In this document: one piece after another, positions 3,599 through 44,700 of the stretch
Layout: each line of letters starts with the position of its first letter
Numbering within the stretch: position 1 is the first letter of the stretch
Assembly: GCA_964016885.1 (NCBI GenBank)
Contig: OZ024743.1
Coordinates: 260,090,001 to 260,154,000 of the forward strand
Direction of reading: 5' to 3'
Source: Eledone cirrhosa
Taxonomy: Eukaryota
Length of the DNA stretch: 64,000 nt
The notes under the pieces: generated by a model
The model's database searches: none
What the model was told of the DNA's origin: nothing
The model's input: only the letters and a program-made list of their open reading frames with translations
Made by a program: the position numbers and the translations under genes

Positions 3599-3753
3599 TC
3601 AATATTAAATTTGAAGATATCAGTTTTGGATGCTGATGATGGGAATGTCTTCCAAAGGGTGGATTATATGGGATACTATTTTCAATTAAAGAAGACATTT
3701 GAAGGACGGAAACTTGAACCTAAAATCCTCAATCTCAAAGGAACAGTAAGCAG
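3599..3753 (+). CDS. Exon: C-terminal part of a C2/MNNL-like domain ([51 protein letters not shown])
   Basis: Polypyrimidine tract plus tttacag|TCA acceptor and AG|gtaaat donor. Beta-strand plus 'VLDADD...VD' resembles C2-domain loops upstream of DSL domains. The phase-2 end joins 8029 in frame. Confidence 0.72.
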
Positions 3754-6415
3754 GTAAATCTTTTGTCATAAAATTCTAACAAAGTTCTCTGTATATCCTT
3801 GTATCTATTAATAATGGTGAAACATAGAGCCACGTTCCTAAGCCAAAATCGATTTCCAGTTGATGATATTTTCTAGAATTTTGCAAATTCTGTGTCCAGA
3901 AAACACAGCTGGCTTATAACAATACTCTTGTATCACAAATGCGGTGCTTATTTTATCGGTAACTGCAAGATGAATCATCAATCTAGTTTTAGTGACATTT
4001 AAACCAAAGTGCCACTTTTTCTAAAGCTGTTCTTCTGTGTTGCCCCACCCACCCACAAAACAATCAGAGAGAAAAATTTGAAAATAATTGACACAGACAC
4101 ACACACATGCGCACGCGCAGATATCATGGTTGATTGAACAGATATTGTTGTCAAGAGCCACAAAAAAAGGAAGTGCCTCCTAATCGAAGAGCTAATCTCA
4201 ACAGATGATAATATATCTCTAAGGGGAATGGAGAAATTATCGAAATCTAGTTAACCTGATTATGTGCACTAAAAACAGAAACTAACTATATATATATAAG
4301 ACAGATATATACATTAAGCCACAAACATGCAGAACCAACAGAAAAAAGCACTACTAGGCATTGCACACTTGTAACGTACAGTGCAATACAAAACCAAAAA
4401 TAACCATTGTATATATTAAAAGTACACAGATATTAATATTTTAATAAAAAATAAGCTATATTTTTACAGATGCTTTTTTTTATTGGCAACTAGGGCCAAA
4501 GAACAAGGGACAATACAAATGGAGGACAGAGGGATTTACACATAATTAAAGAAAACAAATCACACAAAAAAAACGGAATTACAACAACAGAATTCTTCAA
4601 TGGGGGGAGCATCCCACAAGGGGAGTTTAGGAATAACATAGATCCGAAACCACCCTAATATCCAAGAGCACTCTAGGAAGCTGCCCCTCTGCTCTCCGAA
4701 CTTTCCAGCCTACATACTCATGCTAAGAGTAGATCTAATCATCCGAACATTCTCGCTTCATTTACCCACCTTTTAACAAATGTACTGCGGTGGTGGGGAG
4801 CAGTACTTCCATCTACGCCCTCACTTTTCTTTCTGATTGAAAATTGAAATAGTCGATGAGGGCTTGGCCCAAGAGGAAAGTGACTGTCTCCAGTCCTTTT
4901 AGTCACGTCCACTGTATAACCTCTTACGCTAGAGACATCGGGCAGAGGAAAACTGCTTGCCCTTCCCAGCCAAAAGAAGATGGTGCAGCGATCTTCACGA
5001 TGGAGTCGGCCGATATTCGGATTTGTTCCACACGCCATAATAGCTGTTCAACAAAACTACACAAATTAACAATGCCCAGGCACTGGACGAGTGCGGGTAA
5101 AACAGCTTTGTCGTTCTGAAGGCAACTTGAACTGCTCCGTCTGACAGCATTTACATGCATATAGAATATGTTTCGAACCGGCAGAGCGCCCGATAACACT
5201 GTCAGGCCAGGGACTTCTGGAAATTTTCCATAGACTCTGGACCGAAAGTCCTCCATAACGAAATTAGTTCTCACTGACGCCTAGAGTCTCCCCGAGGTCA
5301 TCGCAAATACCTACCACTAGTCCTCTATAAAACACTAACGTGGAATTTCCTCTGACCGCATTGTTTAATTAGTAAAGGGCTGCGAGTGCCTAACAACATT
5401 ACAGATGCCAGTATCAGTCTTCGTTTGACCTAAGACTGCAGCTCAGTCAAAGTGACGAGCTGTGGAAAGTTGTGTCGTATAAACGCCGACCAAGCATGTT
5501 CGCTGCTTAGGAATATATGCGAGTGCCGTAGCCTCAGCGCATGTATGCACATCATCAGTCACGGAAGGTCCAGCCTTCCGCGCAAATAATATTGGCAGCA
5601 GATGGACCGCCTGACCAGTGGAACCTGTTCCTTTCACAAGAAGTGAAGAATGGGTGTTACATAACAATCCCCTGATCTCATCTTTCTTGTTTTCGTCTTA
5701 CTACACCTCGACTTACAGAGCTGGGAATTCTTTTGTTCTGATGCATGGGGGTCGGTTTAATCGACTTTCTCCTCACCTAAAACTGTTGGCCTTGTGCCGA
5801 AAATCAGAAACGATTGATAGGATGAGTTAGAAGAATTTTATTAGTGAGGTATACATTTTTTAATTGATGGCTTTAGTTTGAATTACGAAGGATTGGTAGA
5901 GGATACATAAAAAATATATATATAACCATGTATGCATGGGAGCGACAATGTAAAAGAGTGAGGAGAGCTAACGATGGAGAAAGAAAAATGGGGAGGGAAT
6001 ATGTGTGAAGATATTGAAATATCAATGGGTTTTGTCAGTAACGTTTATTGGAACTAGTTCTTAATTGGCTGACCTGTGAATGTTGACACGCAAGTCAGCG
6101 TTAACACTCTGCCAGTAGAAAAATGGCATAAAGGAACTTAGCAACGCTAGATCGTGAGAAGTCAACCATAATTCATTTCATTTCTTTTGAGATTTTTTCG
6201 GGGGGGGGGGGGTCTGTTTTTTGCGGGGAGGGGGTGGGGGCGAGTTCTACTTAAGTTGTAACAATCTGATATAATTCAGTGGCAGCAGCAGTGGAAAGGG
6301 AAGGGTAATGTGGGAGAGTTCGAAGCATTGTAGTGACACTTTCTTAATTATGTAAAAAAAAAAGAGAAAGGGAAAAAAATAAAGGAATGAGAAGTTATTG
6401 TTATATATTTTTTGT

Positions 6416-6448
<33 letters not shown>

Positions 6449-6449
6449 G

Positions 6450-6506
<57 letters not shown>

Positions 6507-6507
6507 G

Positions 6508-6555
<48 letters not shown>

Positions 6556-6636
6556 CATATGTATATACATATACATATATATATACATATACATATACAT
6601 ATATATATATATATATACATATACATATGTATATAC

Positions 6637-6695
<59 letters not shown>

Positions 6696-6828
6696 CATAT
6701 GTATATACATATACATATATATATACATATATACATACATATATATATACATATATATAACAAAAGATACATAACAATAACTTCTCATTTCTTTATTTTT
6801 TTACATATATATACATATATATATATAC

Positions 6829-6903
<75 letters not shown>

Positions 6904-6904
6904 C

Positions 6905-6951
<47 letters not shown>

Positions 6952-6964
6952 CATATATATATAC

Positions 6965-7001
<37 letters not shown>

Positions 7002-7243
7002 CATATATATAAACATATATATATACATATATATATATACACATATATATAAACATATATATATATACATATATATATATACATATATATATATATATTA
7101 TATATATATATATTATATATATATATTATATATATATATATATTATATATATATATATTATATATATATTTATATTATATATATATATATATATTATATA
7201 TATATATATATTATATATATATATATTATATATATATTTATAT

Positions 7244-7277
<34 letters not shown>

Positions 7278-7356
7278 ATTATATATATATATATATTATA
7301 TATATATATATATTACATATATATATATTATATATATATATATAATATATATATAT

Positions 7357-7388
<32 letters not shown>

Positions 7389-7538
7389 ATATAATATATA
7401 TATATTATATATATATATATATTATATATATATTATATATATATATATTATATATATATATATGTTATATATATATTATATATATATATATTATATATAT
7501 ATATATATTATATATATTATATATATAATATATATATA

Positions 7539-7591
<53 letters not shown>

Positions 7592-7713
7592 CATATATAT
7601 ATATTACTCCTTTGCTTGTATGTACGATGGTTGCGATGTAGTTTCTTGATTTAGATATTGACAGGTGAAACCAAAAAATCTAAGATAATTAAAATCTTGT
7701 GTGGATGTAAAAC

Positions 7714-7758
<45 letters not shown>

Positions 7759-7791
7759 TAATATATATATATATATGTGTGTGTGGTGTGC

Positions 7792-7850
<59 letters not shown>

Positions 7851-8834
7851 TATGCGCGTGACTGTGTATGTGTACATGATCATGTTGCTGTAAAATATTA
7901 GTTTTTCATGTGGTTCTGTATTTTCTACTGATTGGTTATATATATATATATAGGTGTGTGTGTGTGTGTGCGTGTATATAAGTATCCATATATATATATA
8001 TATATATTGCTGTTGTATTCTTTTTCAGTATATTTCTTCAGCTGAAAATGTATTGCAATCAGAACTATTATGGAAGCGCTTGTAAAACTTATTGTATTCC
8101 GACAGATTCTGAGAAGGGCCATTATAAGTGTGATAAAAATACCGGCCAAAAAAAATGCAGCATTGGTAAATATGGCACGTAATTTCGGTCCACCATTTCA
8201 GTCACCCCCTACAATCAACAGAAACCCACATATCATCTACTCTCTCTCCACTACAATCACCCCCAAATATATATATATATATATATTTCTTCTAGTCTCT
8301 GTCTTTGCGCATGCGTTTCCGTGTGTGTTTAATCTTTGGTGTGTGTGTTCGCGTTTGAGTGTATGTGTTTTTGTTTTTGTATTCTATCTTTGTTCACTAG
8401 TATGTGTTTATATGTGTTTGTTGTTATTGTACTTGTGTATATATATATTTATTTATTTATATAATAAATAAATAAATAAATAAATATATACACAAGTACA
8501 ATAACAACAACACAGATAAACGCATACTAATGAACAAAGATAGAATACAAAAACAAAAACACATACACTCAAACGCGAACACACACACCAAACATTATAT
8601 ATATATATCCGTATGTGTTTGACGGCAATACCGAAGTAGAATTTTAATATTCATTTTATTAAGGCTAAATAGTGAGTCTTGTTACTCCGGAGTTTCGCCT
8701 GTTTATCGTAGGGTCATCTTGTCTGATGTCTCTGTAAAAAACAGACGAAATTCCAAAGTTATAAGACTCACTATTTAGCCATAATAAAATGAATATATAT
8801 ATATATATATATATACATATATACACACACATAC

Positions 8835-8865
<31 letters not shown>

Positions 8866-11800
8866 TGTATGTATGTATGTATGTATTTACGTATGTATAA
8901 TTATGCATGTATATACATATAGCCGACTGAACGTACACGTTCCATTTATCCAAAAAGCATTTTTTCCTCTTCTCTATCATTCTACTCTTGCATTTATTTC
9001 TCATTTTATCTTCTGGTGAAGGACTAATGTCCGAAACGTTAAGACCATGTTCTTACTATATCAAGCATTAAATTAATATATATCTTCATTGCTTTGTATT
9101 GTTTTACCGTTTATTTTTCCTATATATATATATATACGTACGTTATTCCGGGTTGAATCGGAGGTAACCACAGTAAGTAAGGTACTCAATACATAGCAGA
9201 GTATAAAAGTTTTAATATAGATGAGATTCTACAGGACTAGAACTGTTTCATTCTTTAGAAATCATCAGGAATCTGGGTATCAAAAAATAAGTATGGTATT
9301 TATAGGTCTCTTCAAGTGGTAGGAGAGGGTAGGGAGTGGGATGGGTATAGGTCATTGGTTGATAGAAAAGGGAATTCATTAAAAGCTAATTCTTCAAGGC
9401 TATAGTTTATTTTTAGAGTAACAAAGGCAGAAAGAATTCTATAAACAAGTTCAGGATGGGGTGCCACTCCTTATTTTTAAGTTTCTCTTAAGCTAACAAT
9501 GCCTATATTTCAGGTGTCTATGTAAACATTTTACAAACTAACAGAGGGAATATACATACCTACACATATATATGCTGTCTTCAGAAATAATTGTTTCTAC
9601 TTTAGGCACAAGGCCAGCAATTACCCAGTGCATTACTGGTACTTTATTTTATCGACCCCGTAAGGATGAAAGGCAAAGTCAACCTCGGCGGGATTTGAAC
9701 TCAGATCGTAAAGGGACGTAACTATGCTGGAAAGCATGGCGTCCGACCCTCTACTGATACTGCCAATCCACCGCCCTTCAGAAATAATGATATTTGTTTA
9801 TTGAAAAACAACAACAAAGATTTAATATAATAGGTCTGTTTGGGAACAGGTTTTGAATTGACCAATAGAAAAGTAGTAAGTGGTCAAGTTGATAGAATAT
9901 AGTAGTAGAAATTTAATTTAGGGGTAGAGGAATGCAGACTTCAGTTTTGAATGGAAAGAATATTTTGAATGAAAAGCTTACTTTGGGGATGAAAAGAGGT
10001 CAAGCCGGTGAAAGGTACACGAAAATGTTATATTATTAAAGAACAATGCTAATGTTAAAATCGAAGGAGAATAAAATTTTAGGATAAATGTGTTAGTGAG
10101 AAATACCAATCTTATTTAAAACATAAGGAATTTAGATCTATAAAAAGAAATTAAATTAATTTAATTGATAGGTATATTTATAGGGATAAATTTATATTAA
10201 TTCATATAGATGTGATAAAAAAGAGTTAGATGTTATTAAAGAATGTTGTTAAAAACGAAGGAAAAAAATGTGGGGGGGGGGGGTAAATGTATTAGTGAGA
10301 AATAACAAATTTATATAGACTACAAGGAACTTAGATTCATAACAGGAAATTAAAATAGTTTATATGTATACTTATAGGTATTAATTTTAGGAAAAGATAG
10401 CTGTAAAAGGGAAATAAAATTATGAAGTTCTCAGTAGTAAAATACTAATTATAGGTAAACCAAATAAAAAAACACTAATTATAATAATTTGTAAAATATA
10501 AGTGTATATTAATTAGGTTTATAATATTTGAAAGTTCTTCTAATTCTATGGTTGCACGATATAATTAATTCTTGTCGCTTATTTAATAGGATGTCCTTAG
10601 ATTTCATTATTTCATCTATTTATCTACATATAAAAATAGCCATTTTGGAAGCCTCAACAATGCAGATGGGTAAATCTCGGGGTAACAGAATCAGGTGGTA
10701 ATGAGAGACAGATGTAAGAGGAAGAGTAGAAAGAGACGTAGAGAGCGTAGGAAAAGAGTAAAAAATAATAACACGAGAATTACCTTGGAAGCGATTTAAT
10801 AGTCCCTATAGTTCGGATTTCACATCCATCAACAGGGGGTTTTCTGAGGGGAAAAGAGTTGTATCGGAGAATGACAAGACGTGGCCTTCGTTTTTTACCC
10901 TGTGCGTACAACTGACATATTCTATCGGGCGTGTGTGCGGGCGAAATTGTTGCGCTAAGATAAAGTTCGAAGCAGTTCTTCTCTACCATATATGTATATA
11001 AATTAAGTATAACAAGACGAATTTTCACAATAGTATTTTTATTGAATATCGTGCGTTTCACAAATTAAGATTCACAAATATATATTTGAGCCAATCATCT
11101 GAGAAACGTACGTAACTGATCGATACATAATACTCTCTTTTACTCCCTCTCTCCCTCACTCGTTCTTACTCTTACCATCACTCATTCTCTCTATCTATCC
11201 TTCACTCTCTCTTCCATTCTCTGTCATTCTTATTCTCACACTTTCTATCATTCTCTCTCTCTTACTCTCTCACTCTGCCTATCTTTCTCACTCACCATAT
11301 TTCTCATTCTTACTCACACTCTCTACCTTACTCTCCCGCTCTCTCTCTCTCATCTCATACAATCTCTCTCACTCTCATTCTCTAGGTTGGATAGGAAAAA
11401 ATTGCCACATAAATCAAGATGACTGTTTGCACAACAGATGCCACAGTGATGCCTCCTGTGTAGATGGTGTTGCATATTACACTTGTCTCTGCCCACCAGA
11501 GAGAACAGGTAAATCACGTAACAACTAAATAACGTTGCAGAAATTAGATACACATATACAGTACATATATACACACATGCACACAGTCATATATATCCTT
11601 ATGTTATATGCACAGTCATATATATCCATATGTTATATGCACAGACATACATACATACATGATGGCTGCAAACTGGTGTTCGAGCATTGCCATCGCCCGA
11701 TAAAATGCTGAAAAATGTGAGGTATGAATGTGGCTTTTTAAACCAGCCAAAAACTTGCACCCTCTGGCACATGCATGGCAACTGTAGGCTCCACCGGGAC

Positions 11801-14800
11801 TTTCCGTTGCTTTGTTCTGGCTGTGTGTTCTCGTGTGTCTTTTTTTTCATACTTACATACATACATAAATACATACATACATACATACATACATACATAC
11901 ATGCATACATACATACATACATACATACATACATACATACATACATACATACATACGTGATGATGGCTGCCCCCTCGTTATCGAGTATGTCCGTTGCACG
12001 ATATAACATTATTAATAATTATCAATTAATTCCATTGTGCAATCCCTGTGCGTGAAGATTTTTTTAAAGTGAGAAAAGACTGTGCACTGAGCCAATCCCA
12101 CTCTCTGAGCGACAGTAGCTATAACCTCAAAAGAAGAAAAGATCAACATCATCGGTAACTACTGAGCCGTAGGTTTTATGTTGGAGTTATCCCAGTTTCC
12201 TGAGTTGCCTTCTCCTAGAAGAATGCCCTGACAAAGGCTAGAGTCCTTCACTCCAAGTGGTTGAAGCCCGCGATCGGATATCCAGCATGACTATTTCTAT
12301 GTCCCTGCGCATATACATAGTATGTACAAGTGTACATACATATTTACACATTTTGGGATGGCCGTTGACTCTTATGAGTTCTTCCGCCCTTTGTCAGGTT
12401 TTGTTTTTTGTCCTGCAGGGTGTCCAAAATCACCCTCCTCACCAAGTAAACTTGGTGGGGTTGCCGGTTTAGTCGCCAACGACCCGACCAGGCGACAGGT
12501 CACTCTTATGTCAGGTCACTCTTGAGTGCTACTGGTAAAATGTAACCCAGTACAACCTGTCGCACATACATACGTACATCCGTACGTACATACATACGTA
12601 CATACATACATACATACATACATACATACATACATACATACATACATACATACATACATACATACATACATACATACATACATACATTTTGTGTTGCAGC
12701 GTTTGGTTGTGTTTTCATACATATTTGTCTAATACTTCATATCTGTTAACAGACAATATTATATAAATCTTCATATTTTTTCGGTTGTTGACAGGAACTA
12801 TTTGTGAGATTTTGCTGCAGGTGACCTCTACACCGGGTGGTGATAAAGTGAACTCAACCAGCAGATGGATTACTCCCACAGCTAGAAATGCAACATATCA
12901 AACAAAATCGCAACATATCGAATTGCAACATATCAAACGAACTGCTTCAGATGAATACAGAAAGACACGCGTAGAAATAAGGACGATGGCTGCTGTTGAA
13001 AGAAGTAGTTTCCCACAAGTCACAACAACTCCGACGTCTAGAGATCGGATCACAAAGATAACAGAGACTAGAGACGATGTCACATTGAGAAGACAGACTG
13101 AAGATGGTGTCACAGTAATAACAGAGACTGAAGATGGTGTCACAGTAATAACAGAGACTGAAGATGGTGTCACAGAAGTAACAGAGACTGAAGATGGTGT
13201 TACAGAAGTGACAGAGACTAAAGATTGTGTCACAGGAGTAACAGTGACTGAATATGGTGTCATGGGAGTAACAGAGACTGACGATGATGTCACTGGAGTA
13301 ACAGAGACTGAAGACGATGTTACAGAAGTAACAAAGACTAAAGATGGTGTCACAGGAGTAACAGAGACTGAATATGGTGTCACAGGAGTAACAGTGACTG
13401 AATATGGTGTCAGAAGAGTAACGGAGACTGAAGATAGTGTCACAGGAGTAACAGAGACTAAAGATGGTGTCACAGGAGTAACAGAGACTGAAGATGGTGT
13501 CACAGAAGTAACAGAGACTGAAGATGGTGTTACAGAAGTAACAGAGACTAAAGATGGTGTCACAGGAGTAACAGAGACTGAATATGGTGCCACAGGAGTA
13601 ACAGAGACTGACGATGATGTCACTGGAGTAACAGAGACTGAAGACGATGTTACAGAAGTAACAAAGACTAAAGATGGTGTCACAGGAGTAACAGAGACTG
13701 AATATGGTGTCACAGGAGTAACAGTGACTGAATATGGTGTCATGGGAGTAACAGAGACTGACGATGATGTCACTGGAGTAACAGAGACTGAAGACGATGT
13801 TACAGAAGTAACAAAGACTAAAGATGGTGTCACAGGAGTAACAGAGACTGAATATGGTGTCACAGGAGTAACAGTGACTGAATATGGTGTCAGAAGAGTA
13901 ACGGAGACTGAAGATAGTGTCACAGGAGTAACAGAGACTGAAGACGATGTCACAGAAGTAACAGAGACTAAAGATGGTGTCACAGGAGTAACAGAGACTG
14001 AATATGGTGTCACAGGAGTAACAGAGACTGATGATGGTGTCACAGGAGTAACAGAGACTGACGATGATGTCACTGGAGTATCAGAGACTGAAAGCGATGT
14101 TACAGAGGTAACACAGACTAAAGATGGTGTTACAGAGGTAACAGAGACTAAAGATGATGTCACTGGAGTAACAGAGACTGAAGACGATGTTACAGAAGTA
14201 ACAGAGACTAAAGATGGTGTCACAGGAGTAACAGAGACTGAAGATGGTGTCACAAGAGTAACAGCGACTAAATATGGTGTCACAGGAGTAACAGAGACTG
14301 AAGATGGTGTCATAGAAATAACAGAGACTGAAGATGGTGTTACACAAGTAACAGAGACTAAAGATTGTGTCACAGGAGTAACAGAGACTGAAGATGATGT
14401 TACAGAGATACCAAAGACTGAAGATGGTGTCACAGGAGTAACAGAGACTGAATATGGTGCCACAGAAGTAACAGAGACTGACGATGATGTCACTGGAGTA
14501 ACAGAGACTGAAAGCGATGTTACAGAAGTAACAGAGACTAAAGATGGTGTCACAGGAGTAACAGAGACTAAAGATGATGTCACTGGAGTAACAGAGACTG
14601 AAGACGATGTTACAGAAGTAACAGAGACTAAAGATGGTGTCACAGGAGTAACAGAGACTGAATATGGTGCCACAGGAGTAACAGAGACTGACGATGATGT
14701 CACTGGAGTAACAGAGACTGAAAGCGATGTTACAGAAGTAACAAAGACTAAAGATGGTGTCACAGGAGTAACAGAGACTAAAGATGATGTCACTGGAGTA

Positions 14801-17800
14801 ACAGAGACTGAAGACGATGTTACAGAAGTAACAGAGACTAAAGATGGTGTCACAGGAGTAACAGAGACTAAAGATTATGTCACTGGAGTAACAGAGACTA
14901 AAGATGGTGTCACAGGAGTAACAGAGACTGACGATGATGTCACTGGTGTATCAGAGACTGAAAGCGATGTTACAGAAGTAACAGAGACTAAAGATGGTGT
15001 CACAGGAGTAACAGAGACTAAAGATTATGTCACTGGAGTAACAGAGACTGAAGACGATGTTACAGAAGTAACAGAGACTAAAGATGGTGTCACAGTAGTA
15101 ACAGTGACTGAAGATGATGTTACAGAGATACCAAAGACTGAAGATGGTGTCACAGGAGTAACAGAGACTGAATATGGTGTCACAGGAGTAACAGTGACTG
15201 GAGATGGTGTCAGAAGAGTAACGGATACTGAAGATAGTGTCACAGGAGTAACAGAGACTGAAGACGATGTCACAGAAGTAACAGAGACTGGAGACGATGT
15301 CACAGGAGTAACAGAGACGGGAGACAATGTCACAGGAGTAACAGAGACGACCCCTCTTGCAAGTGAACAGATCGATGTAACAATGGTGGCAATTAGTAAA
15401 ACGTCGGAGACGGTAATTCAAGATGTAACGCAGAAACAACCAGAAGATATTTCACATGTGAGTTTAGAAACAGTCACATCTAGTCTCTTTTTTATGACTG
15501 ATACAACAAAGGGAGAAGAAAATATTGCTACAATACAACCTTCTATTATAAACCGTTTAATTGAAACAGAAGTAACAGTATCTAACGAATCGTTTACGCT
15601 TACTCAAGAAACAAACACAATGGAAGAAGAACATGTAGAGTCAGACTCAACAACAGATTTCACACTACAACATGATCTTCCAGATAAAACAGAAGACATA
15701 ACAAAAGTAATAATCGATCAAACTACCTCACCATTTGATCGTTTCGCAGACGACATTAGCAGTGCTGTAACCGTGGAAACAGCTATTGTTCCATCTACCC
15801 AGTCCACAGACACAAAACCTCCGGATTATTATATATCTAAAAGTTTTACTGAATTGGCTGAAATTGACCAAACATATCTATCTACACCTGTTGTAGAAAA
15901 TGAAACAGATATCAGTGTATCGTCTACTCAATCAAAAACTACATCACTTTTCTTTGAAACTATTGTAACAAAAGAAGAACAACAGACTACAAATATATCT
16001 GCAATTGCTCCAGTGTCGTCTACTCCAGTTCAAGATATTACTGACAGTGGAACAACAGACAAACTTATGGGATTAGACTCAACGTCAGAAGATACTGTAC
16101 AGACCCATCTTGTAACAGAAGACGATGTTACAAATGTAACAGAATCAACAACATTCAGAATAAATGAAACAGAAATAGAGAATAAAACATTACTGATTGA
16201 TTCCACTATTTCAACATCTGATCAAGTAGCAGACGACAGTAGTGCCGTAACTATGGAAACAAATATCACTTTATCAACCCAGTCTACAGAAACTAAACTT
16301 CCATATTATTATATACCTAAAGACATTACTGAATTGGATGAGATTAATCAAACAAATATATCTACACAAACATCAGAAGTAACAATGTCACATTCATCAC
16401 CAACACAGACTACAGATCAATTCAATACAATAACAGAAAAAGGTTTGTCGAATCTAGAGCATATCACACATTTCTCTGGAGAAAACACGACGAATAAATT
16501 AAAGCAGATCATGGAAAGTACTGCTACATTGCAGACCAACACAATAAGCAAGGCTGGTGAAATATTCTATACTGATACAAAAATAGTCGAAGCAATCTCA
16601 TTACGATCTGAATCTTCTCAAGACATCACCAATACCGTTCCAGCCACTCCACAAATATATACAACAGACGAAATAATCTTCAAAACTCTTCCTTCGATTG
16701 ATGATGGAAAAACTATATATCATACTACAGAATCGATAATGTCTCCTACCGAAACAGCAGACAGTTTGTTCCAAAATGTAACAACTCAAATAAGTCGAGA
16801 AGAAAGCACGGCTATTTTGACTAACTTTTTTGAGACCGAATCTGTAAATAGTGTGAGAAAATACAGTGGATACAGTTCAACAGACTATGATACGAGTACA
16901 AGATCAACAGGGGAAGGAAAACAGTTTAAAACTGATGTTTCATCTAGTACGGTTTCAACGGCAGTTCCGATTAAATGGTCGACAGAGACAGGCCAGATTA
17001 TAGGTAAACTTGATACTGTTACATCGACTTTTCTGAGTAAAACATCTGACAAAGAAGCGTATGAAGAAACTGTAAGTGATGTGACCGAGGACGTGTCTGC
17101 AACTAAATATAATATAACGGGGAGTACAATAGTACTCTCTTCCACAGAGCAAGATGCTGAGACAGGTATAACTACATTTAGGAGATTAACAAAGACAAGT
17201 CAGTCTCAGCGAGAACTCGACAATGACACGTCGGAATTTCATGAAGACACATTTAGCAGTGACTCTCACGGAGTAACAGTAACAAGCGATGTTGTTAAGT
17301 CTACACTTGATATATTCTCCAAAGTAACAAAAGAACAACAGACTACAAATATACCTGCAATTGCTCCAGTGTTGTCTACTCCAGTTCAAGATATTACTAA
17401 CAGTGTAACAACAGACAAACTTATGAGATTAGACTCAACGTCAGAAGATACTGTACAGACTCATCTTGTAACAGAAGACGATATTACAAATGTAACAGAA
17501 TCAACAACATTCAGAATAAATGAAACAGAAATAGAGAATAAAACATTACTGATTGATTCCACTATTTCAACATCTGATCAAGTAGCAGACGAGAGTAGTG
17601 CCGTAACGATGGAAACAAATATCACTTTATCAACCCAGTCTACAGAAACAAAACTTCCAGATTATTATATATCTAAAGATATTACTGAATTAGATGAGAT
17701 TAACCAAACAAATATATCTACACAAACATCAGAAGTAACAATGTCACATTCATCACCAACACAGACTACAGATCAATTCAATACAATAACAGAAAAAGGT

Positions 17801-19519
17801 TTGTCGAATCTAGAGAATATCACAAGTGTTTCTAGAGAAAGCACAACGGATAAATTAAACTACACAACAGAAGGTCGTGCTTCGTTCAGCTCGGAAAGAA
17901 TTATAACCGGAGAACTGTTCAGCACACCAGGCTTTATCGATAGTAGCAAAATGTATAACTTAACTGAATCAATATTCAGCAATACTAATGCTACACATAG
18001 TTTACTTCCAATAACCACAACACAAAGGAGTCAACGGAATGCAAGCGTAACAATCTTAACCAAGCTGTTTGAGGCAGACTTAAATGGAAGTATGTACAAA
18101 AGCACTGCAACATTAGATCATATAAATGTTACAACCTACAAACCTGAACCATTGCATACAGACGTTGATTTCCCTACAACACAACATGCTTCTAAAGTAA
18201 CTTCAGATAAGGAATACCTCTCTAGTAGAAGACTAATCTCAATCCAAAATGCTACAGCAAAAGCAATTTCCATCAGCCCCAAAAGAAGTGATTTTGATCA
18301 ATTCAGAACTAGAGAAATAACAATGTTTTACAAATTGCTTAATAAAACAGAGCTTCCGAAAAGAGACATTTTGACTACGACAATGAAATTGCTAACAACA
18401 GCCCAGTCTTCAGTAATCCCAACTAGATCTAGTACAAGGAAAACAACTATGAAGTCATTTATCAATTTGTGTATCTCCATCAAAATTAAAATTCCGAAAG
18501 CTGTTGCAAAAGCCAGTATAATTATCAATCGTAGGAAATTATCAAAAAGGTTGTGCTGGAGTCTAAGCGACTTATCATTGTTCAAATTTCCAAATCAATC
18601 TTCTCAAAAGCCAGTGGCTACAGATGTTCAAACTGCCATATCTTGGTTATCAAAACATATGATTGCAATACTTCCGGCCAATAATAAATATGCAATATTT
18701 GGCATGAAGGCGAATATTAATTGGATTCAACGAAGATTAAGATATTTTTTCAATTTCAATTGGTTAAATATTCCGAATAAGACGCAACAGCTTAAACCCA
18801 CTTGTATTGTATTAGTCATAAAACCTGTGTATGCTGGTGTTACTTCGCAGCAAACAAAAGTTACTTCAGATCATTTCCGTCCGAATTCTGAATCTGTTGA
18901 CTCAAAACAACCCAAACCTTTAAAACTTCAGGTATGTCGACCAGCGAAGCAAATCAGAATAACTACAACGAGAAGCTCGTTGATTACTTTCAAATCCCAA
19001 ATCAATACAGACGTGGAAGAGAAGCGTATATACCATGGAAAGCCCACGGTTGTCGTCAGAGTTGTGTCTACGGCGAAACGCTATTATCAACATGGAAAGA
19101 ATATAATCAGAAGACTTTATCAAAAGAACAAGGGTATAATTCAGAACACGCTCTACAAACTTTCTAACTTTTGGTGGGGTGCAGGAGCGATAACAACAAA
19201 ACGGTACCGACCTACAGTAAATAGAAACGATGGTGTAGGTAAGCTGTGGAACAATGCTTGGTCAGGGGCAAATAAGGTTTACAAAAGAACACGATTGCTA
19301 GTTAGAAAAGTTTACACGAGATTGGTGGGTGCATTTTCCTCGATGTTGGATCAAGCAAGGTCAAGAGCATCAAGTACCGTCCGTCGATACTATATTACAT
19401 ACAACAAACATTATAATAATTATAGAATACGCGTACAAAATATAGCAGAATCTTTAAAAAAGAATTATGGCTATTACACTAAAAATCTTCAAGTCTATTG
19501 GAGACGTTATGTGGGTTAG
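3599..19519 (+). CDS. Spliced gene (5' end outside the window or not found): C2/MNNL-like - DSL - EGF_CA - acidic decapeptide repeat - mucin-like stalk - basic tail protein
   Basis: Exons 3599-3753, 8029-8165, 11386-11508 and 12795-19519 all have AG/GT boundaries with compatible phases (0/2, 2/1, 1/1, 1/stop). Total 7140 nt is divisible by 3. The DSL and EGF cysteine patterns are completed across the splice junctions. Confidence 0.88.
4474..5400 (-). mobile_element. 3' fragment of an L1/Tx1-like non-LTR retrotransposon
   Basis: Degenerate zf-RVT-like 'ALPVR...[16 protein letters not shown]' and ORF2 C-terminus '[11 protein letters not shown]'. AATAAA plus an A-tail lies at 4474-4485 on the minus strand. 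Confidence 0.65.
6410..7605. repeat. About 1.2-kb compound (TA)n/(TATACA)n microsatellite
   Basis: Directly visible; it generates the many YI/IY ORFs. Confidence 0.97.
8029..8165 (+). CDS. Exon: DSL domain ([47 protein letters not shown])
   Basis: tttttcag|T acceptor and G|gtaaat donor. C-x3-YYG-x2-C-x3-C-x-P-x-D-x3-GHY-x-CD-x3-G-x-K-x-C matches the Delta/Serrate/LAG-2 signature. Confidence 0.93.
9224..9274 (-). ncRNA. Type I hammerhead ribozyme-like motif (PLE-associated)
   Basis: AGATTC-CTGATGA-tTTCtaaaGAAt-GAAA-CAG ttctagtc CTG-TA-GAATCT: perfect 6-bp stem I, intact core, GUA cleavage triplet. The stem II closing pair is non-canonical (U.U). Confidence 0.65.
9592..9775 (-). mobile_element. 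tRNA-derived SINE (Meta/MESC-like core) inserted in the PLE
   Basis: A box TGGCAGTATC, B box GAGTTCAAATCC, core GCCTTTCATCC..GGGGTCGATAAAAT..GTACCAG. 13-bp TSD CTTCAGAAATAAT at 9579-9591 and 9776-9788. Confidence 0.9.
11386..11508 (+). CDS. Exon: end of DSL plus Ca-binding EGF ([42 protein letters not shown])
   Basis: Long CT-rich tract, tctag|GT acceptor and G|gtaaat donor; 123 nt, phase 1-1. NQDDC Ca-binding start, C-x-D-x4-Y-x-C hydroxylation motif and C2-x4-S-C3 O-fucose consensus. Confidence 0.93.
12795..19519 (+). CDS. Giant terminal exon (about 2240 aa): last EGF Cys (GTICE), acidic repeats, Thr/Ser-rich stalk, K/R/Y/W-rich tail
   Basis: gttgacag|GA acceptor is in the frame of the 12785..19519 ORF. 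The 6.7-kb frame has no stop, including more than 4 kb outside the tandem array. AATAAA follows at 19951. Confidence 0.88.
13049..15350 (+). repeat. Coding 30-bp tandem array, about 77 units, consensus GTCACAGGAGTAACAGAGACTGAAGATGGT ([10 protein letters not shown])
   Basis: Columns stay aligned through about 38 consecutive 60-nt lines, so there are no indels, only substitutions. Confidence 0.97.
15965..17815 (+). repeat. Intragenic direct duplication of about 495 bp (15965-16459 and 17324-17815)
   Basis: The block from VTKE(E)QQTTN to TEKGLSNLE occurs twice, almost identical. A more diverged partial copy lies at about 15690-15890. Confidence 0.93.
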
Positions 19520-19950: not shown

Positions 19951-19956
19951 AATAAA
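19951..19956 (+). promoter_or_regulatory. Candidate polyadenylation signal of the DSL-mucin gene
   Basis: AATAAA about 430 nt after the stop, followed by AT/T-rich sequence. Confidence 0.4.
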
Positions 19957-20375
19957 TTAAATATATTTATAGTCATTTCTTTCCAATCAATTCATTAGAT
20001 CAGGGATTACATTTGACTAGGCTGGATGAATCCCGCCCAGACTCAGAGCCGTCGCTACTATTAAAGCTAACTGGGCTTCTGACTATAACACAGACATCAG
20101 AGAGACATGCTACTGAAACTTAAGGATCACCGTTTTATCCAAATTTCTCTAATTAACATAAATATATAATAATTTCCAGAGGTCAGTCAATAAATAACTC
20201 GCTATACATTATTGCCACAGAGCAGCTTTGTGGAAATATTCAAATTGTTAGAGACGATTGTATCCTGTAATGACCTGTCACATGATTTAGCGTGGACTGT
20301 GTAGTTGAAAATGGAAGCTCTGTAATTCTCTTAGTGTGGTCAGAGCAAGATGTGTCACTAGTTAGCTCCGTCCCC

Positions 20376-34087: not shown

Positions 34088-37000
34088 AGTGGTGGTGATA
34101 TTACTGTTGTTGTTGGTGGTGGTGGTATTACTGTTGGTAGTGGTGGTGGTGATATTATTGTTGTTGGTGGTGGTGGTGGCGATATTACTGTTGTTGTTGG
34201 TGGTGCTGATATTACTGTTGTTGTTGGTGGTGATATTACTGTTGTTGTTGGTGGTGATATTACTGTTGTTGTTGGTGGTGATATTACTGTTGTTGTTGGT
34301 GGTGATATTACTGTTGTTGTTGGGGTGATATTACTGTTGTTGTTGGTGGTGGTGATATTACTGTTGTTGGTGGTGGTGGTGATATTACTGTTGTTGTTGG
34401 TGGTGGTGATATTACTGTTGTTGGTGGTGGTGATATTACTGTTGTTGGTGGTGGTGGTGGCGATATTACTGTTGTTGGTGGTGGTGGTGATATTATTGTT
34501 GGTGGTGGTGGTGGTGGCGATATTACTGTTGTTGATGGTGGTGGTGGTGGTGATATTACTGTTCTTGATGGTGGTGGTGGTGATATTACTGTTGTTGGTG
34601 GTGGTGGTGGCGATATTACTGTTGTTGATGGTGGTGGTGGTGGTGATATTACTGTTCTTGATGGTGGTGGTGGTGATATTACTGTTGTTGTTGGTGGTGG
34701 TGGCGATATTACTGTTGTTGATGGTGGTGGTGGTGGTGATATTACTGTTCTTGATGGTGGTGGTGGTGATATTACTGTTGTTGTTGGTGGTGGTGGCGAT
34801 ATTACTGTTGTTGATGGTGGTGGTGGTGGTGATATTACTGTTCTTGATGGTGGTGGTGGTGATATTACTGTTGTTGGTGGTGGTGGTGGTGATATTACTG
34901 TTGTTGGTGGTGGTGGTGGTGGTGATATTACTGTTCTTGATGGTGGTGGTGGTGATATTACTGTTGTTGGTGGTGGTGAGATTACTGTTGTTGTTGGTGG
35001 TGGTGGTGGTGGTGCTGGTGGTGGTGATATTACTGTTGTTGATGGTGGTGGTGATATTACTGTTGTTGATGGTGGTGAGATTACTGTTGTTGTTGGTGGT
35101 GATATTACTGTTGTTGTTGGTGGTGGTGGTAATATTACTGTTGTTGTTGGTGGTGGTGGTGATATTACTGTTGTTGGTGGTGGTGGTGGTGATATTACTG
35201 TTGTTGGTGGTGGTGGTGGTGATATTACTGTTGGTGGTGGTGATAGAGATATTACTGTTGGTGGTGGTGGTGGTGGTATTACTGTTGGTAGTGGTGGTGG
35301 TGATATTACTGTTGGTAGTGGTGGTGGTGATATTACTGTTGTTGGTGGTGGTGGTGGTGGTATTACTGTTGGTAGTGGTGGTGGTGATATTACTGTTGGT
35401 GGTGGTGATAGAGATATTACTGTTGGTGGTGGTGGTGGTGGTATTACTGTTGGTAGTGGTGGTGGTGATATTATTGTTGTTGGTGGTGGTGGTGGTGATA
35501 TTACTGTTGTTGATGGTGATATTACTGTTGTTGGTGGTGGTGGTGGTGGTGGTGATATTACTGTTGTTGATGGTGATATTACTGTTGTTGGTGGTGGTGG
35601 TGGTGGTGGTGCTGGTGGTGGTGATATTACTGTTGTTGGTGGTGGTGGTGGTGGTGGTGATATTACTGTTGTTGATGGTGATATTACTGTTGTTGGTGGT
35701 GGTGGTGGTGGTGGTGCTGGTGGTGGTGATATTACTGTTGTTGTTGGTGGTGGTGGCGATATTACTGTTGTTGATGGTGGTGGTGGTGGTGATATTACTG
35801 TTCTTGATGGTGGTGATAGAGATATTACTGTTGGTGGTGGTGGTGGTGGTATTACTGTTGGTAGTGGTGGTGGTGATATTATTGTTGTTGGTGGTGGTGG
35901 TGGTGATATTACTGTTGTTGATGGTGATATTACTGTTGTTGGTGGTGGTGGTGGTGGTGGTGATATTACTGTTGTTGATGGTGATATTACTGTTGTTGGT
36001 GGTGGTGGTGGTGGTGGTGCTGGTGGTGGTGATATTACTGTTGTTGGTGGTGGTGGTGGTGGTGGTGATATTACTGTTGTTGATGGTGATATTACTGTTG
36101 TTGGTGGTGGTGGTGGTGGTGGTGCTGGTGGTGGTGATATTACTGTTGTTGTTGGTGGTGGTGGCGATATTACTGTTGTTGATGGTGGTGGTGGTGGTGA
36201 TATTACTGTTCTTGATGGTGGTGGTGGTGATATTACTGTTGTTGTTGGTGGTGGTGGCGATATTACTGTTGTTGATGGTGGTGGTGGTGGTGATATTACT
36301 GTTCTTGATGGTGGTGGTGGTGATATTACTGTTGTTGGTGGTGGTGGTGGTGATATTACTGTTGTTGGTGGTGGTGGTGGTGGTGATATTACTGTTCTTG
36401 ATGGTGGTGGTGGTGATATTACTGTTGTTGGTGGTGGTGGTGGTGATATTACTGTTGTTGGTGGTGGTGAGATTACTGTTGTTGTTGGTGGTGGTGGTGG
36501 TGGTGCTGGTGGTGGTGATATTACTGTTGTTGATGGTGGTGGTGATATTACTGTTGTTGATGGTGGTGAGATTACTGTTGTTGTTGGTGGTGGTGGTGGT
36601 GGTGCTGGTGGTGGTGATATTACTGTTGTTGATGGTGGTGGTGATATTACTGTTGTTGGTGGTGGTGATATTACTGTTGTTGTTGGTGGTGATATTACTG
36701 TTGTTGTTGGTGGTGGTGGTAATATTACTGTTGTTGTTGGTGGTGGTGGTGATATTACTGTTGTTGGTGGTGGTGGTGGTGATATTACTGTTGTTGGTGG
36801 TGGTGGTGGTGATATTACTGTTGGTGGTGGTGATAGAGATATTACTGTTGGTGGTGGTGGTGGTGGTATTACTGTTGGTAGTGGTGGTGGTGATATTACT
36901 GTTGGTAGTGGTGGTGGTGATATTACTGTTGTTGGTGGTGGTGGTGGTGGTATTACTGTTGGTAGTGGTGGTGGTGATATTACTGTTGGTGGTGGTGATA

Positions 37001-39000
37001 GAGATATTACTGTTGGTGGTGGTGGTGGTGGTATTACTGTTGGTAGTGGTGGTGGTGATATTATTGTTGTTGGTGGTGGTGGTGGTGATATTACTGTTGT
37101 TGATGGTGATATTACTGTTGTTGGTGGTGGTGGTGGTGGTGGTGCTGGTGGTGGTGATATTACTGTTGTTGATGGTGGTGGTGATATTACTGTTGTTGGT
37201 GGTGGTGATATTACTGTTGTTGTTGGTGGTGATATTACTGTTGTTGTTGGTGGTGGTGGTGATATTACTGTTGTTGTTGGTGGTGATATTACTGTTGTTG
37301 TTGGTGGTGGTGGTGATATTACTGTTGTTGTTGGTGGTGGTGGTGATATTTCTGTTGTTGGTGGTGGTGGTGGTGTGATATTACTGTTCTTGATGGTGGT
37401 GGTGGTGATATTACTGTTGTTGTTGGTAGTGGTGGTGATATTTCTGTTGTTGGTGGTGGTGGTGGTGGTGATATTACTGTTGTTGGTGGTGGTGATATTA
37501 CTGTTGTTGTTGGTGGTGGTGGTGATATTACTGTTGTTGTTGGTAGTGGTGGTGGTGATATTACTGTTGTTCTTGGTAGTGGTGGTGATATTACTGTTGT
37601 TGTTGGTAGTGGTGGTGGTGATATTACTGTTGTTGGTGGTGGTGGTGGTGGTGGTGATATTACTGTTGTTGGTGGTGGTGATATTACTGTTGTTGGTGAT
37701 GGTGGTGATATTACTGTTGTTGTTGGAGGTGGTGATATTACTGTTGTTGTTGGTGGTGGTGATATTACTGTTGTTGGTGGTGATGATATTACTGTTGTTG
37801 GTGATGGTGGTGATATTACTGTTGTTGTTGGAGGTGGTGATATTACTGTTGTTGTTGGTGGTGGTGATATTACTGTTGTTGGTGGTGGTGGTGGTGGTGG
37901 TGATATTACTGTTGTTGCTGGTGATATTAGTTGTTGGTGGTGGTGATATTTCTGTTGTTGTTGGTAGTGGTGGTGATATTTCTGTTGGTGGTGGTGGTGG
38001 TGGTGTGATATTACTGTTCTTGATGGTGGTGGTGGTGATATTACTGTTGTTGGTGGTGGTGATATTACTGTTGTTGTTGGTGGTGATATTACTGTTGTTG
38101 TTGGTGGTGATATTACTGTTGTTGTTGGGGTGATATTACTGTTGTTGTTGGGGTGATATTACTGTTGTTGTTGATGGTGGTGGTGATATTACTGTTGTTG
38201 TTGATGGTGGTGGTGATATTACTGTTGTTGGTGGTGGTGATATTACTGTTGTTGTTGGTGGCGATATTACTGTAGTTGATGGTGGTGGTGGTGGTGATAT
38301 TACTGTTCTTGATGGTGGTGGTGGTGATATTACTGTTGTTGGTGGTGGTGGTGGTGGTGGTGATATTACTGTTGTTGATGGTGGTGATATTACTGTTGTT
38401 GGTGGTGGTGGTGATATTACTGTTGTTGGTGGTGGTGGTGGTGATATTACTGTTGTTGGTGGTGGTGGTGATATTACTGTTGTTGATGGTGGTGATATTA
38501 CTGTTGTTGGTGGTGGTGATATTACTGTTGTTGTTGGTGGTGATATTACTGTTGTTGGTGGTGGTGGTGGTGGTGATATTACTGTTGTTGTTGGTGGTGG
38601 TGGTGATATTACTGTTGTTGTTGGTGGTGGTGGTGATATTACTGTTGTTGTTGGTGGTAGTGGTGGTGATATTACTGTTGTTGATGGTGGTGATATTACT
38701 GTTGATGGTGGTGGTGATATTACTGTTGATGGTGGTGGTGATATTACTGTTGTTGTTGATGGTGATATTACTGTTGTTGATGGTGGTGATATTACTGTTG
38801 ATGGTGGTGGTGGTGGTATTACTGTTGTTGTTGATGGTGGTGGTGATATTACTGTTGTTGGTGGTGGTGATATTACTGTTGTTGCTGGTGGTGGTGGTAT
38901 TGCTGTTGTTGTTGGTGATATTACTGTTGTTGGTGATGGTGATATATTACTGTTGTTAGTGGTGGTGGTGGTATTGCTGTTGGTGGTGATATTGCTGCTA
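34088..39000. repeat. About 4.9-kb satellite, unit GATATTACT(GTT)n(GGT)n
   Basis: A constant GATATTACT core with variable trinucleotide runs, repeated on the order of 150-200 times; extreme G+T strand bias. Confidence 0.97.
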
Positions 39001-41732: not shown

Positions 41733-44700
41733 CTGAAATAAAACAAAGTTCATGTAGAGGGCACAGTGACATAATGAGGTTAACTCACTTTACCCTAAGT
41801 ACTTCCTTAATTAATGGCCTTATACAAATGTGAAAAAAAAATAAAAATCAAGTATATATTTTTTTTAAATCCATAACATCCTGAACTGCATGAAACCACA
41901 TTAATATGACATTCTTAGAAAGTACAAAACAGAACTGTGACTGCATCACATTGAAAATTAAAACCTTATCTCTAATACAGCAAATTTTGACAATCTGTTT
42001 ACTAGTAAAGATAGTATAAACATTTGAATTAACAAACCTGTTTTTAGATATTTTCTGCTAACTCAATGCAGGATGTTAAGAGTTAAAGAAAACATTTCAA
42101 CTCACCAATAGATTGTGGGAGTAGTAACCATATGTGCAGTTTGATATTCCTAAAGAAGTGAGGGCACTTTTCACATAGGATTTAGGGCTTGGAATCATCA
42201 GGCTGGTTTTGCGGAGTTTGCTCATTTTGGTGGTCACATAAAATGGCATTACACACTGAAAGATTGAAAAATATTCAGTCACATAACAATACAATATCAA
42301 GTTTACCAAGCACCCGAATGTAAGGCTGTATTTAACCCTTTGGCTACCAACTGCGCCCTAAAAAACCTAACCATTTTAAAGAATTCCTATTTAAATTAAA
42401 ATCTTCCAACATAATTTTATATAAGAACCATATGTTATTTTAAAATCTTAGTAATAAAATAAATCCCTCAAAATTCTTCATTAAATAATTGAAATAGAGT
42501 GTATTTCATTAGAAATGTGGCCACAAAAAGGAAAAATATTAAATTATAGCTTACCTATGAGATAGGGGTATATTTGTGTGTATATCCATGCTTGAATGGA
42601 TTAGATAGGTTGTAATGTTCAGAAACCAGACAGGTCACAACATGATTTCATTTCACTCATACTTTCTAGTCTGGCATTGTTTCTACGGCTGAATGTCCTT
42701 CTTAATGATAACCACTTCATGTTGTGCAAGGTGCATTCTATCAGAGCACCACCACTACCATTTTGCAGTGGCCTGGGTACATTTTATTGTGGCACCAGCA
42801 TTACCGCTTTTCTTAACTAGGGTTTCTGTCTTGTAAGCTAGGCTGAGCGATATGAGGGGGAACAGTGATAGAGATTGGAAGATGAAAACAGAGGTAGACT
42901 ATAATTTGCTTGCTGAGAGAGAGAAGGGGAGGGGGTTTAAGGTGAGTGAGTGATATCCAGAGGTACATTGTGGGACCAAGAAACTCACTCAGATGGTGGA
43001 TGGGTGCTACACGAGAATGCTGAGGATGGCTCTATGGCGACAAGGAAGGTTGCTTGACCACGTCTTGACCAAACAAAATATAATATTTTCACCAAAAACT
43101 GCCCTTTAAACACATGTCAGATGGATTACAATATTCATTATTACAATTACTTTGACTGTTCCCTGACAATTAGTACCAGTTTCAAGATAGAATTATCTTA
43201 AAGTATATATAATTTGACTTGATTTTCGCCAACAAACCACGTGTGGACATGGACGGGGAAAAAAGGAAAAAAAACAAAACAAATCACTACATCCCTTAAG
43301 GATCGCAGTAAGTACTCCACAAAACATATAAACAACAATATACACACAGATTTATATACAGATATATACCATATGCATATACACACACGTGAAAAGAAAC
43401 CACACTATTTCGTGTGAGACACTATACCGGCCAATTTTACCAATTTACATTGGTAAAATATTTCTTAACATTGACTTCGCTTCTAACCCACATACACCTT
43501 TTAATTATATATATATACTAGCAGCTGAAAGTTAATAATTTGAAAAAAAAAAATATTATTGAAAGTTTATTATAAAGAAGCAGTATCAGGGGAAAAAAAA
43601 AAAAAAAAAACGTTATTTCGCTGTGAATAAACAACTGCCTTCTACAGTACGTTTCATTTAACTTATGCAGCATAATTATTTGTTTACATGCACAGACTCT
43701 TCTGTACACACACATTTAGGAAAACGGAAACAAAATACACAAAAAAACAAAACAAAAAAACAGACATTTAATTTCTATCGTAATCAAGTGCGCTAAACCT
43801 ATATTGTTTACATTCTGTGTTTTTCTACGGATGGGTAGAAATAACAAAATTGCCATGGTGATATCCATCGATGAAGTATGCGACAAAACTGGTCGATGTC
43901 CCAAAATAGAACATTGCCCGGAAGATCACACCTGCCATATCTGTACGGAACCCGAAAACTCGTTCCATAATCGTTGGGTTGAATGTGGAACCTGTCGCAT
44001 CTCTGTCTGCCTTCAATGCGCCACAGGCCAAAATAAGAAACATCATATTGCTACGATGGATAGACTCTGGGAGATGGTCCAGCTAACAAACTGGTCCTTT
44101 CAGTGCCTGGACTGTATGCCTGCTTCTCCCATTGCTGCGGAACAACAAAGACCGAAGATCGTGTTTTCTACCATTGTTCCTGAACAACAACAACAAAAAC
44201 CGAGGATCGTGTCTTCCTCTACCATTGTCCCTGAACAACAGCAAAAACCAACGACCGTAGCTTCTGCTACTACCCCCGTTGAAGGACTTCATCAACAACA
44301 GCAACCCATGTCTTCCTCACCCGTTACTTTTCAACAACAACAACCGACGACTGTGTCTTCTACCATGCCTGTTGAAGGAGAAGAACAACAACAAAAACCG
44401 ACCGTCAATACGGAGTTTGAGGAAATACGGCAAATGATTTCCGCTTTAAGTCAAGAAATAGCGGAAATAAAATCAAGCGTTCGTGTAGAACCCCACAATG
44501 AGGGATCTTACCGGAGTGCCTTGTTAAAAAATCTCCGCGTACCTCATGTTGAACCTAGACGCATTGAGAATGCCACTGAATCTGCAAACCACGAAGTGAT
44601 TGCCATTGGTGTGCCGGAAGACATAGTTGATCTTCAGGCATTTGCTGCCAGTTCATCCAAAGACCTGGGCTGTGCTCCCGCAAAGGGTGCTCTACGCCTT

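Follow-up and report, generated by a model that had tools for sequence, protein, structure and literature searches.

What becomes of a Notch-ligand head when it is carried on a giant acidic chain? This question is raised by a gene in a 64,000-nucleotide stretch of the Eledone cirrhosa genome, which we call the window (C4:260090001-260154000, where C4 denotes contig OZ024743.1 of the 3.0-Gb assembly GCA_964016885.1). A preliminary description had interpreted this gene as a Notch-ligand head fused to a secreted mucin, acting either as a Notch modulator or as part of a structural secretion. According to our analysis, its spliced product consists, in order, of a C2 fragment, a DSL domain, one EGF domain, an acidic Thr/Ser-rich stalk of ~1,880 residues and a basic tail. 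The tail ends in a conserved, predicted amphipathic helix, placed at the C-terminus, where Delta carries its membrane anchor. The reading that we favor, tentatively and with a probability of about 0.45, is that of a secreted glycoprotein in which this cationic helix, lying on a lipid or anionic surface, would replace the transmembrane anchor, and whose head would no longer activate Notch.

The gene structure is the foundation of any such reading. All introns between the four exons in the window are of the GT-AG type with matching phases, and the joined frame is free of stops up to the TAG at 19517-19519 (2,378 residues counted from 3602); in the two halves of the giant exon, each of the other plus-strand frames contains 79-108 stops. 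The claim that this giant frame is the last exon of a spliced gene with upstream C2, DSL and EGF exons is thus upheld, and the sixth EGF cysteine is indeed located within it. The order and junctions of the three small exons described earlier also stand, but they are not the only upstream ones. The gene appears to start ~150 kb upstream of the window, with the remaining C2 exons and a candidate signal exon 138-151 kb upstream; the second C2 exon would be joined to the first exon of the window across a putative 141.6-kb intron. Phases fit throughout, and two orthologue models contain the same join. The full model comprises seven coding exons with the phase series 0-2-0-2-1-1, spans ~170 kb and encodes 2,500 residues. 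The profile check of the spliced protein proposed for MNNL, DSL and EGF gave Pfam matches to all three, DSL and EGF in the window, each exceeding the cut-off, and MNNL through the first of three C2 exons, the other two of which align to the orthologues and to a paralog considered below. The C2 exon of the window alone had no Pfam match, the giant exon had no significant one, and EGF_CA, the earlier label, was likewise not matched. A contig from three sequencing runs crosses the donor at 8165 into the intron; these runs behave as DNA and are uninformative on splicing. Beyond the first candidate poly(A) signal, further AATAAA motifs follow the stop at 20189 and 20502.

A comparison with other cephalopods, suggested together with the original claim, found the same architecture in four other octopods. 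Searching 2,040 candidates with the tail returned four proteins, 49-54% identical and each with a DSL domain: XP_036364437.1 (Octopus sinensis), CAI9731589.1 (O. vulgaris), XP_014785705.1 (O. bimaculoides) and GAB1601705.1 (Argonauta hians). Because these four independent protein models all carry DSL, one EGF, stalk and tail, the architecture is not a product of chance. Identity to the orthologues is unevenly distributed: 65-84% in DSL, 72-80% in EGF, 28-42% in the non-repeat part of the stalk and 46-57% in the tail modules. Stalk length also differs, being 1,000-1,681 residues in the three orthologues measured. None of the four models includes a signal peptide or the first C2 exon, and the tail of the O. 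sinensis model is interrupted by a gap. In place of C2, residues 31-90 of the O. bimaculoides model match a minus-strand stretch 10 kb upstream of the window; its N-terminus reads as a transposon protein, which we take to be a probable mis-joined exon. The names of the orthologues are automatic, either 'mucin-5AC(-like)' or 'Delta-like protein'.

That no hydrophobic helix precedes the stop, as originally noted, was confirmed. The highest 19-residue Kyte-Doolittle mean in the spliced product is 1.31, compared with 2.05 obtained with the same code for the transmembrane-like end of another open reading frame in this genome, and in 33 family sequences scanned hydropathy beyond residue 45 does not exceed 1.71. 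Secretion is likely, judging by the signal-like starts in the paralog family (its orthologues begin with hydrophobic signal-like peptides), the candidate signal exon here and the probable disulfides of the tail.

All sequence beyond the EGF domain had been considered low-complexity, a view that does not hold for the last ~360 residues, which form two conserved, ordered modules. Of 13 aligned members, 11 carry all four cysteines of the first module; the remaining two, almost copies of one another, lack both the third and the fourth, a joint loss suggestive of two disulfides and of an extracellular location. The second, comprising the last ~150 residues, is 53-57% identical among octopods, in contrast to 28-42% for the stalk. 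Its mean hydrophobic moment is 0.37-0.46 in 17 of 17 sequences, compared with 0.20-0.22 for shuffled versions, and none of 500 shuffles of each sequence reaches the observed value. The net charge is +11 to +29, and after an invariant proline all 17 sequences show a period of 3.64-3.69. Hydrophobic and aromatic residues occupy four of 11 positions, flanked by Lys/Arg, with acidic residues on the opposite side (12 of the 17 sequences tabulated). In the part of PMC5889406 available to us, 3-11 helices are tied to lipid-dependent folding, and the hydrophobic moment of apolipoprotein A-I is given as 0.39, a value to be compared with ours only roughly. AlphaFold2 models of the tail reached a mean predicted local distance difference test (pLDDT) score of 45.6 with five sequences, which is uninformative, and 59.3 with 22. 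A three-copy complex prediction of the helix scored 0.00, giving no verdict, and is not used as evidence.

Searches for relatives of the tail elsewhere returned little. Pfam gave no significant match (best E 0.21 for the tail of this gene), a profile search of PDB sequences gave a single weak bacterial hit (E 0.016) that we ignored, and the ESM Atlas gave no usable match. A fold search found generic helical hairpins only (Z at most 10.1), and barely probed the four-cysteine module. Both modules are therefore without a Pfam or solved relative in these searches, although such blanks do not prove novelty.

The sole other significant match of the tail in the E. cirrhosa genome (E 1.9e-18) lies on the opposite strand and has its own DSL, C2 and signal-like exons. 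The start codon of this paralog (C4:259928201) is ~11 kb from the candidate start of our gene, head to head. The two genes share the exon lengths 155, 137 and 123 as well as the phase series. The stalk of the paralog is short, 129-170 residues in three orthologues, and among solved structures Delta-like protein 1 (E 4.7e-69) best matches an orthologue of the paralog. The accessions of the two Argonauta models follow one another directly, and in three species the two genes lie on equal-sized contigs; therefore, the linkage looks old. Profile comparison yields only a weak homology signal between the four-cysteine modules of the two paralogs (best E 3e-5 to 1e-3 at Z=1000, with most members non-significant), and the link relies on cysteine positions and context. 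A search with the head region found only two paralog orthologues among 154 candidates and did not place the head in the Delta tree. It is likely that the pair arose by duplication of a Delta-like gene already bearing the tail; afterwards, the copy studied here would have kept one EGF while its stalk lengthened about tenfold. A run of 200 N (C4:259908308-259908507) lies inside the first intron of the paralog.

How far does the family extend? When 1.84 billion representatives were searched with a profile of the tail, 12 matched with E no higher than 0.001: the octopod versions of the two genes, one protein of Sepia pharaonis, proteins of the snails Littorina and Batillaria, and five unnamed sequences. 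In the gastropods, the helix follows Thr-rich sequence in EGF/mucin proteins (XP_070199909.1 of Littorina saxatilis, E 2e-11; KAG5689563.1 of Batillaria attramentaria, E 1.4e-12). These proteins resemble ours in the helical module, but their models lack DSL, C2 and the four-cysteine module, and their helix is shorter, with further sequence after it. The four most distant hits far outscore their own reversed sequences, and none of 50 phase-preserving shuffles reaches their scores; the similarity therefore reflects homology, not mere amphipathy. The four-cysteine module was undetected in these four hits and was seen in cephalopods only. One of the unnamed sequences, a paralog-type protein with 1,126 residues, has a signal-like start, a full head with DSL, eight EGF matches and the tail, with no hydrophobic span. 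It is encoded on a single contig of 4,901 bases. Since the corresponding head is encoded by many exons in the E. cirrhosa genome, this contig is most simply a spliced transcript, which supports the paralog only, and indirectly. When a tree was built from the helix, the sequences of this gene, those of its paralog and the remaining ones each occupied one side of a branch (bootstrap 70-78); we did not use it for the order of events. Current names such as 'mucin-5AC-like', 'Notch homolog 2' and 'uncharacterized' hide what is a two-gene cephalopod family.

The head has departed from that of a canonical ligand. The receptor face described for Jagged1 in the accessible text of PMC3415683 consists of F199, R201, R203, D205 and F207. 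At these positions our DSL has Y, I, T, S and K, so that none of the five is kept and a lysine takes the place of Phe207. The degenerate face is common to three orthologues, while the Argonauta model has a gap there. By inspection, the single EGF after DSL is classical, and there is no DOS-type short-loop EGF1-2 pair. The genome encodes canonical ligands elsewhere: four of its 11 DSL exon hits keep 3-5 face residues and seven keep 0-1. The DSL face of the paralog is acidic, and one paralog-type protein keeps two of the five residues.

Between head and tail, the stalk contains 30-32% Ser plus Thr and little proline (0.3% in its repeat and 3% after it), and is likely glycosylated. The 74-unit repeat was seen only here and in none of the four orthologues; the Octopus models show, by eye, long internal duplications. 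In the non-tandem part of the E. cirrhosa stalk, a 129-residue core is duplicated, the copies being 97% identical and 452 residues apart.

Table 1. Coordinates of the gene, its parts and its paralog (positions in the window, or on the contig where marked C4; TRF, Tandem Repeats Finder)
Feature	Position	Strand	Details
Third C2/MNNL exon	3599..3753	+	58% identity to O. vulgaris and O. sinensis models; 155 nucleotides, as in paralog exon
End of C2 and DSL domain	8029..8165	+	Pfam DSL E 2.7e-10; aligned to Jagged1; degenerate Notch-binding face
Single classical EGF, five of six cysteines	11386..11508	+	Pfam EGF E 1.3e-4; 72-80% identity in four orthologues
Giant last coding exon, 6,725 nucleotides, ending at TAG	12795..19519	+	Frame without stops
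Acidic 10-residue repeat, 74 units, net charge -178	13121..15346	+	TRF period 30, 0% indels
Non-tandem Thr/Ser stalk	15347..18454	+	~32% Ser plus Thr; 27 N-glycosylation sequons; 28-42% identical to orthologues
Tail module 1, four-cysteine domain	18455..18950	+	Predicted beta-beta-alpha-alpha-beta-beta; core pLDDT ~80-90 (AlphaFold2)
Tail module 2, cationic Tyr/Trp-rich amphipathic helix, 11-residue periodicity	19037..19516	+	One conserved proline breaks the helix; also ends the paralog
Candidate poly(A) signal	19951..19956	+	First AATAAA past the stop; sequence only
Candidate signal exon, 72 nucleotides, outside window	C4:259939165-259939236	+	Hydrophobic stretch, strong phase-0 donor; best of 112 candidates, unconfirmed
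C2 exon 1, outside window	C4:259944875-259945041	+	Pfam MNNL E 1.4e-7
C2 exon 2, outside window	C4:259951913-259952036	+	Matched by first 38 residues of O. vulgaris model
Paralog, 1,005 residues	about C4:259855522-259928201	-	Five EGFs, short stalk, same helix at the end

Taken together, these features are best accommodated by a secreted and glycosylated rod, in which the C2-DSL-EGF head would be held at the end of the long acidic stalk as an adhesive or spacer module, not as a Notch activator, while the predicted tail helix would lie on lipid or another anionic surface and stand in for the membrane anchor. The exon structure, the domains, the lack of a hydrophobic span, the conservation, the 11-residue amphipathic pattern and the degenerate receptor face are directly seen; secretion, glycosylation, lipid binding and loss of Notch activation are inferred. 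However, several observations weigh against this reading. DSL and EGF are the best-conserved parts of the protein (65-84%); therefore, the head appears constrained to bind some partner, possibly Notch through another surface. Neither the accessions of the two genes nor six peptides were found in the searched portions of the O. vulgaris skin-mucus and ink proteome supplements (PMC10138644, PMC10142993), which is a weak argument against high abundance in mucus or ink; the 'mucin-5AC-like' entry of the ink paper is a different protein. The signal exon is a candidate only, and such an exon is missing from all four orthologue models. Before the proline, 15 of 17 sequences peak near the helical angle, the two exceptions being this gene and its paralog. 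AlphaFold2 models the helix with low confidence (about 40-65), and the same residue pattern also fits an 11-residue coiled coil.

The coiled-coil fit leads to a different possibility, which we regard as rather doubtful: that the protein is a structural secretion, its tail oligomerizing in this manner or pairing electrostatically with the acidic stalks to build a gel, cuticle, egg coat or adhesive, with the heads serving as binding knobs. The core positions do match the a-d-e-h pattern of hendecad coiled coils, and there are strong charge blocks in both the stalk (-178 and -88) and the tail (+24 and +31). Tyr accounts for 7-18%, Lys/Arg are abundant, the snail proteins bearing the helix belong to the EGF/mucin type and have no DSL in current models, and both stalk length and repeat type vary between species. 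Yet the high positive charge and the bulky aromatic face would be a poor fit for a homomeric coiled coil, the paralog combines the tail with a short stalk, and the proteome result speaks weakly against an abundant secretion. Moreover, gel-forming mucins of the MUC5AC type are VWD/C8/TIL assemblies with a cystine knot, and this protein is unlike them, with no Pfam match to any of these polymerizing domains. Were the head instead to bind octopus Notch, as a decoy or a ligand acting over long range, while the tail attached it to membranes, particles or matrix, one would have a tethered Notch modulator, an idea that we find unlikely. It draws on a C2-DSL-EGF head that is complete and conserved at 58-84%, on the two face residues retained in one paralog-type protein, and on two precedents discussed below, the secreted one-EGF ligands of Caenorhabditis elegans and the molluscan Delta2. 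But the face is as degenerate in three orthologues as it is here and acidic in the paralog, canonical ligands are available elsewhere in the genome, and the protein has no intracellular tail for the endocytic pulling through which Notch ligands work. Thus, of the secreted DSL-mucin proposed in the preliminary description, the spliced structure and the absence of a transmembrane segment stand and secretion remains probable, whereas the modulator role is weakened by the loss of all five face residues and the lack of a DOS pair.

It is also conceivable, though very improbable, that the gene model is incomplete, the main product being a membrane-anchored isoform made through a downstream exon, or the far-upstream C2 exons belonging to another transcript. 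The splice junctions are, after all, predicted from sequence, the long intron is putative, the O. bimaculoides model starts with transposon-like sequence in place of C2, and the O. sinensis model has its tail gap. On the other hand, two orthologue models share the long-intron join, and the exon phases equal those of the paralog. The donor-like site at 18931, at which the giant exon was suggested to be cut and joined to a transmembrane-coding exon, sits in a motif conserved in five of five orthologues and followed by 183-203 conserved residues, the tail being conserved up to the stop in all five. In 145 kb of downstream sequence, two of 310 acceptor candidates, representing one site, give a transmembrane-like frame, compared with one of 346 on the opposite control strand. 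With no credible downstream exon, we rejected this splice as the main form, although a minor membrane isoform may exist. A bolder extension of the lipid-anchored reading covers the coleoid pair as a whole: an apolipoprotein-like helix would have replaced the transmembrane anchor in both genes, so that the head rides membranes or lipid particles outside the cell and mediates ruler-like, contact-independent DSL signalling or adhesion. The gap to the receptor would then be set by stalk length, short in the paralog and 1,000-1,900 residues here. We consider this quite unlikely.

Several further loci of this genome deserve mention. Non-canonical DSL exon hits outnumber canonical ones; three in tandem and two further divergent exons, each with 0-1 of the five face residues, lie at C2:90872035-90972766 and C2:355406053-355593189. 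A canonical Delta-type C2-DSL region occurs twice, ~75 kb apart and with identical DSL exon translation, at C6:93803354-93907911, and is either a recent duplication or an assembly artefact. A further gene of the C2-DSL-multi-EGF type, its C2 split over exons in a similar way, is located at C1156:40865-60679; its DSL is not among the 11 Pfam hits. At C4:34804172-34822170, a C2/MNNL-like exon stands 13 kb before a 1,595-residue Thr/Ser-rich frame whose end is formed by a transmembrane-like segment (hydropathy 2.05) and three basic residues, with no DSL found. If exon and frame are joined, this is possibly a second C2-mucin gene, anchored in the membrane. Within the window, a 4.9-kb minisatellite with 27/30-nucleotide units (34089-38982) is open in four of six frames over 34400-37300, and one minus-strand frame translates into repeated N-glycosylation sequons; that four frames are open, however, suggests an effect of repeat composition, not coding. 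A long interspersed nuclear element (LINE)-type element at 43720-47841 encodes an endonuclease (E 1.2e-15) and a reverse transcriptase (E 6.3e-39) in separate frames.

Literature searches found no description of this architecture or tail, subscription papers being mostly beyond their reach, and none of six family accessions, two of the four orthologues included, occurs in the paper full texts searched. The consulted part of a review of invertebrate Notch (PMC10970066) likewise contains nothing resembling this architecture. Orthologues with both domains annotated are already in databases and DSL proteins without a transmembrane segment are already known. The distinctive points are the conserved tail and the gene pair, which define a two-gene cephalopod family and two tail modules for which no family was found. 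Should the tail prove to be a lipid anchor, a Notch-ligand head would be presented in a new manner, with no need to span the membrane. Should the head no longer take part in Notch signalling, the gene would clearly exemplify the co-option of a module from a developmental ligand for a secreted surface protein.

Where, then, does this protein stand among known systems? By the definitions in the accessible text of Gazave et al. (2017; PMC5356439), Delta and Delta-like proteins require a transmembrane segment and an intracellular domain, and Delta has at least nine EGF repeats as well as a signal peptide, for which our gene offers a candidate exon. Our gene shares the MNNL/C2, DSL, EGF order with Delta, but it and four of four orthologues have one EGF. 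It also lacks the transmembrane and intracellular parts and the DOS pair, has a degenerate face, and has added the stalk and tail. It is therefore neither Delta nor Delta-like, and fits the 'DSL-like' bin (DSL plus another conserved domain) excluded in that text. Nor is it Serrate/Jagged, whose 16 EGFs and VWC domain were not found by Pfam scans. The molluscan Delta2, as reported in the portion of He et al. (2021; PMC8166818) at hand, is likewise a DSL protein without a transmembrane segment, but it is shortened by an early stop, whereas our gene is extended by more than 2,200 residues. We rejected identity with Delta2 on this ground and because the octopus Delta accessions in the table of that paper differ from those of both our genes. 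C. elegans DSL-1, a secreted one-EGF ligand that acts in Notch signalling, has DSL, a single EGF and no transmembrane segment, as here; this is a likeness of design, and the passages available from PMC3415683 and PMC2504490 describe no stalk or tail. Finally, the 11-mer helices of exchangeable apolipoproteins, perilipins and alpha-synuclein, as presented in the portion of PMC5889406 cited above, have the same 3-11 periodicity and a similar hydrophobic moment. No significant sequence match links them to our tail in the Pfam and PDB searches; the tail differs in being strongly cationic and aromatic and in being borne by a protein with a Notch-ligand head.

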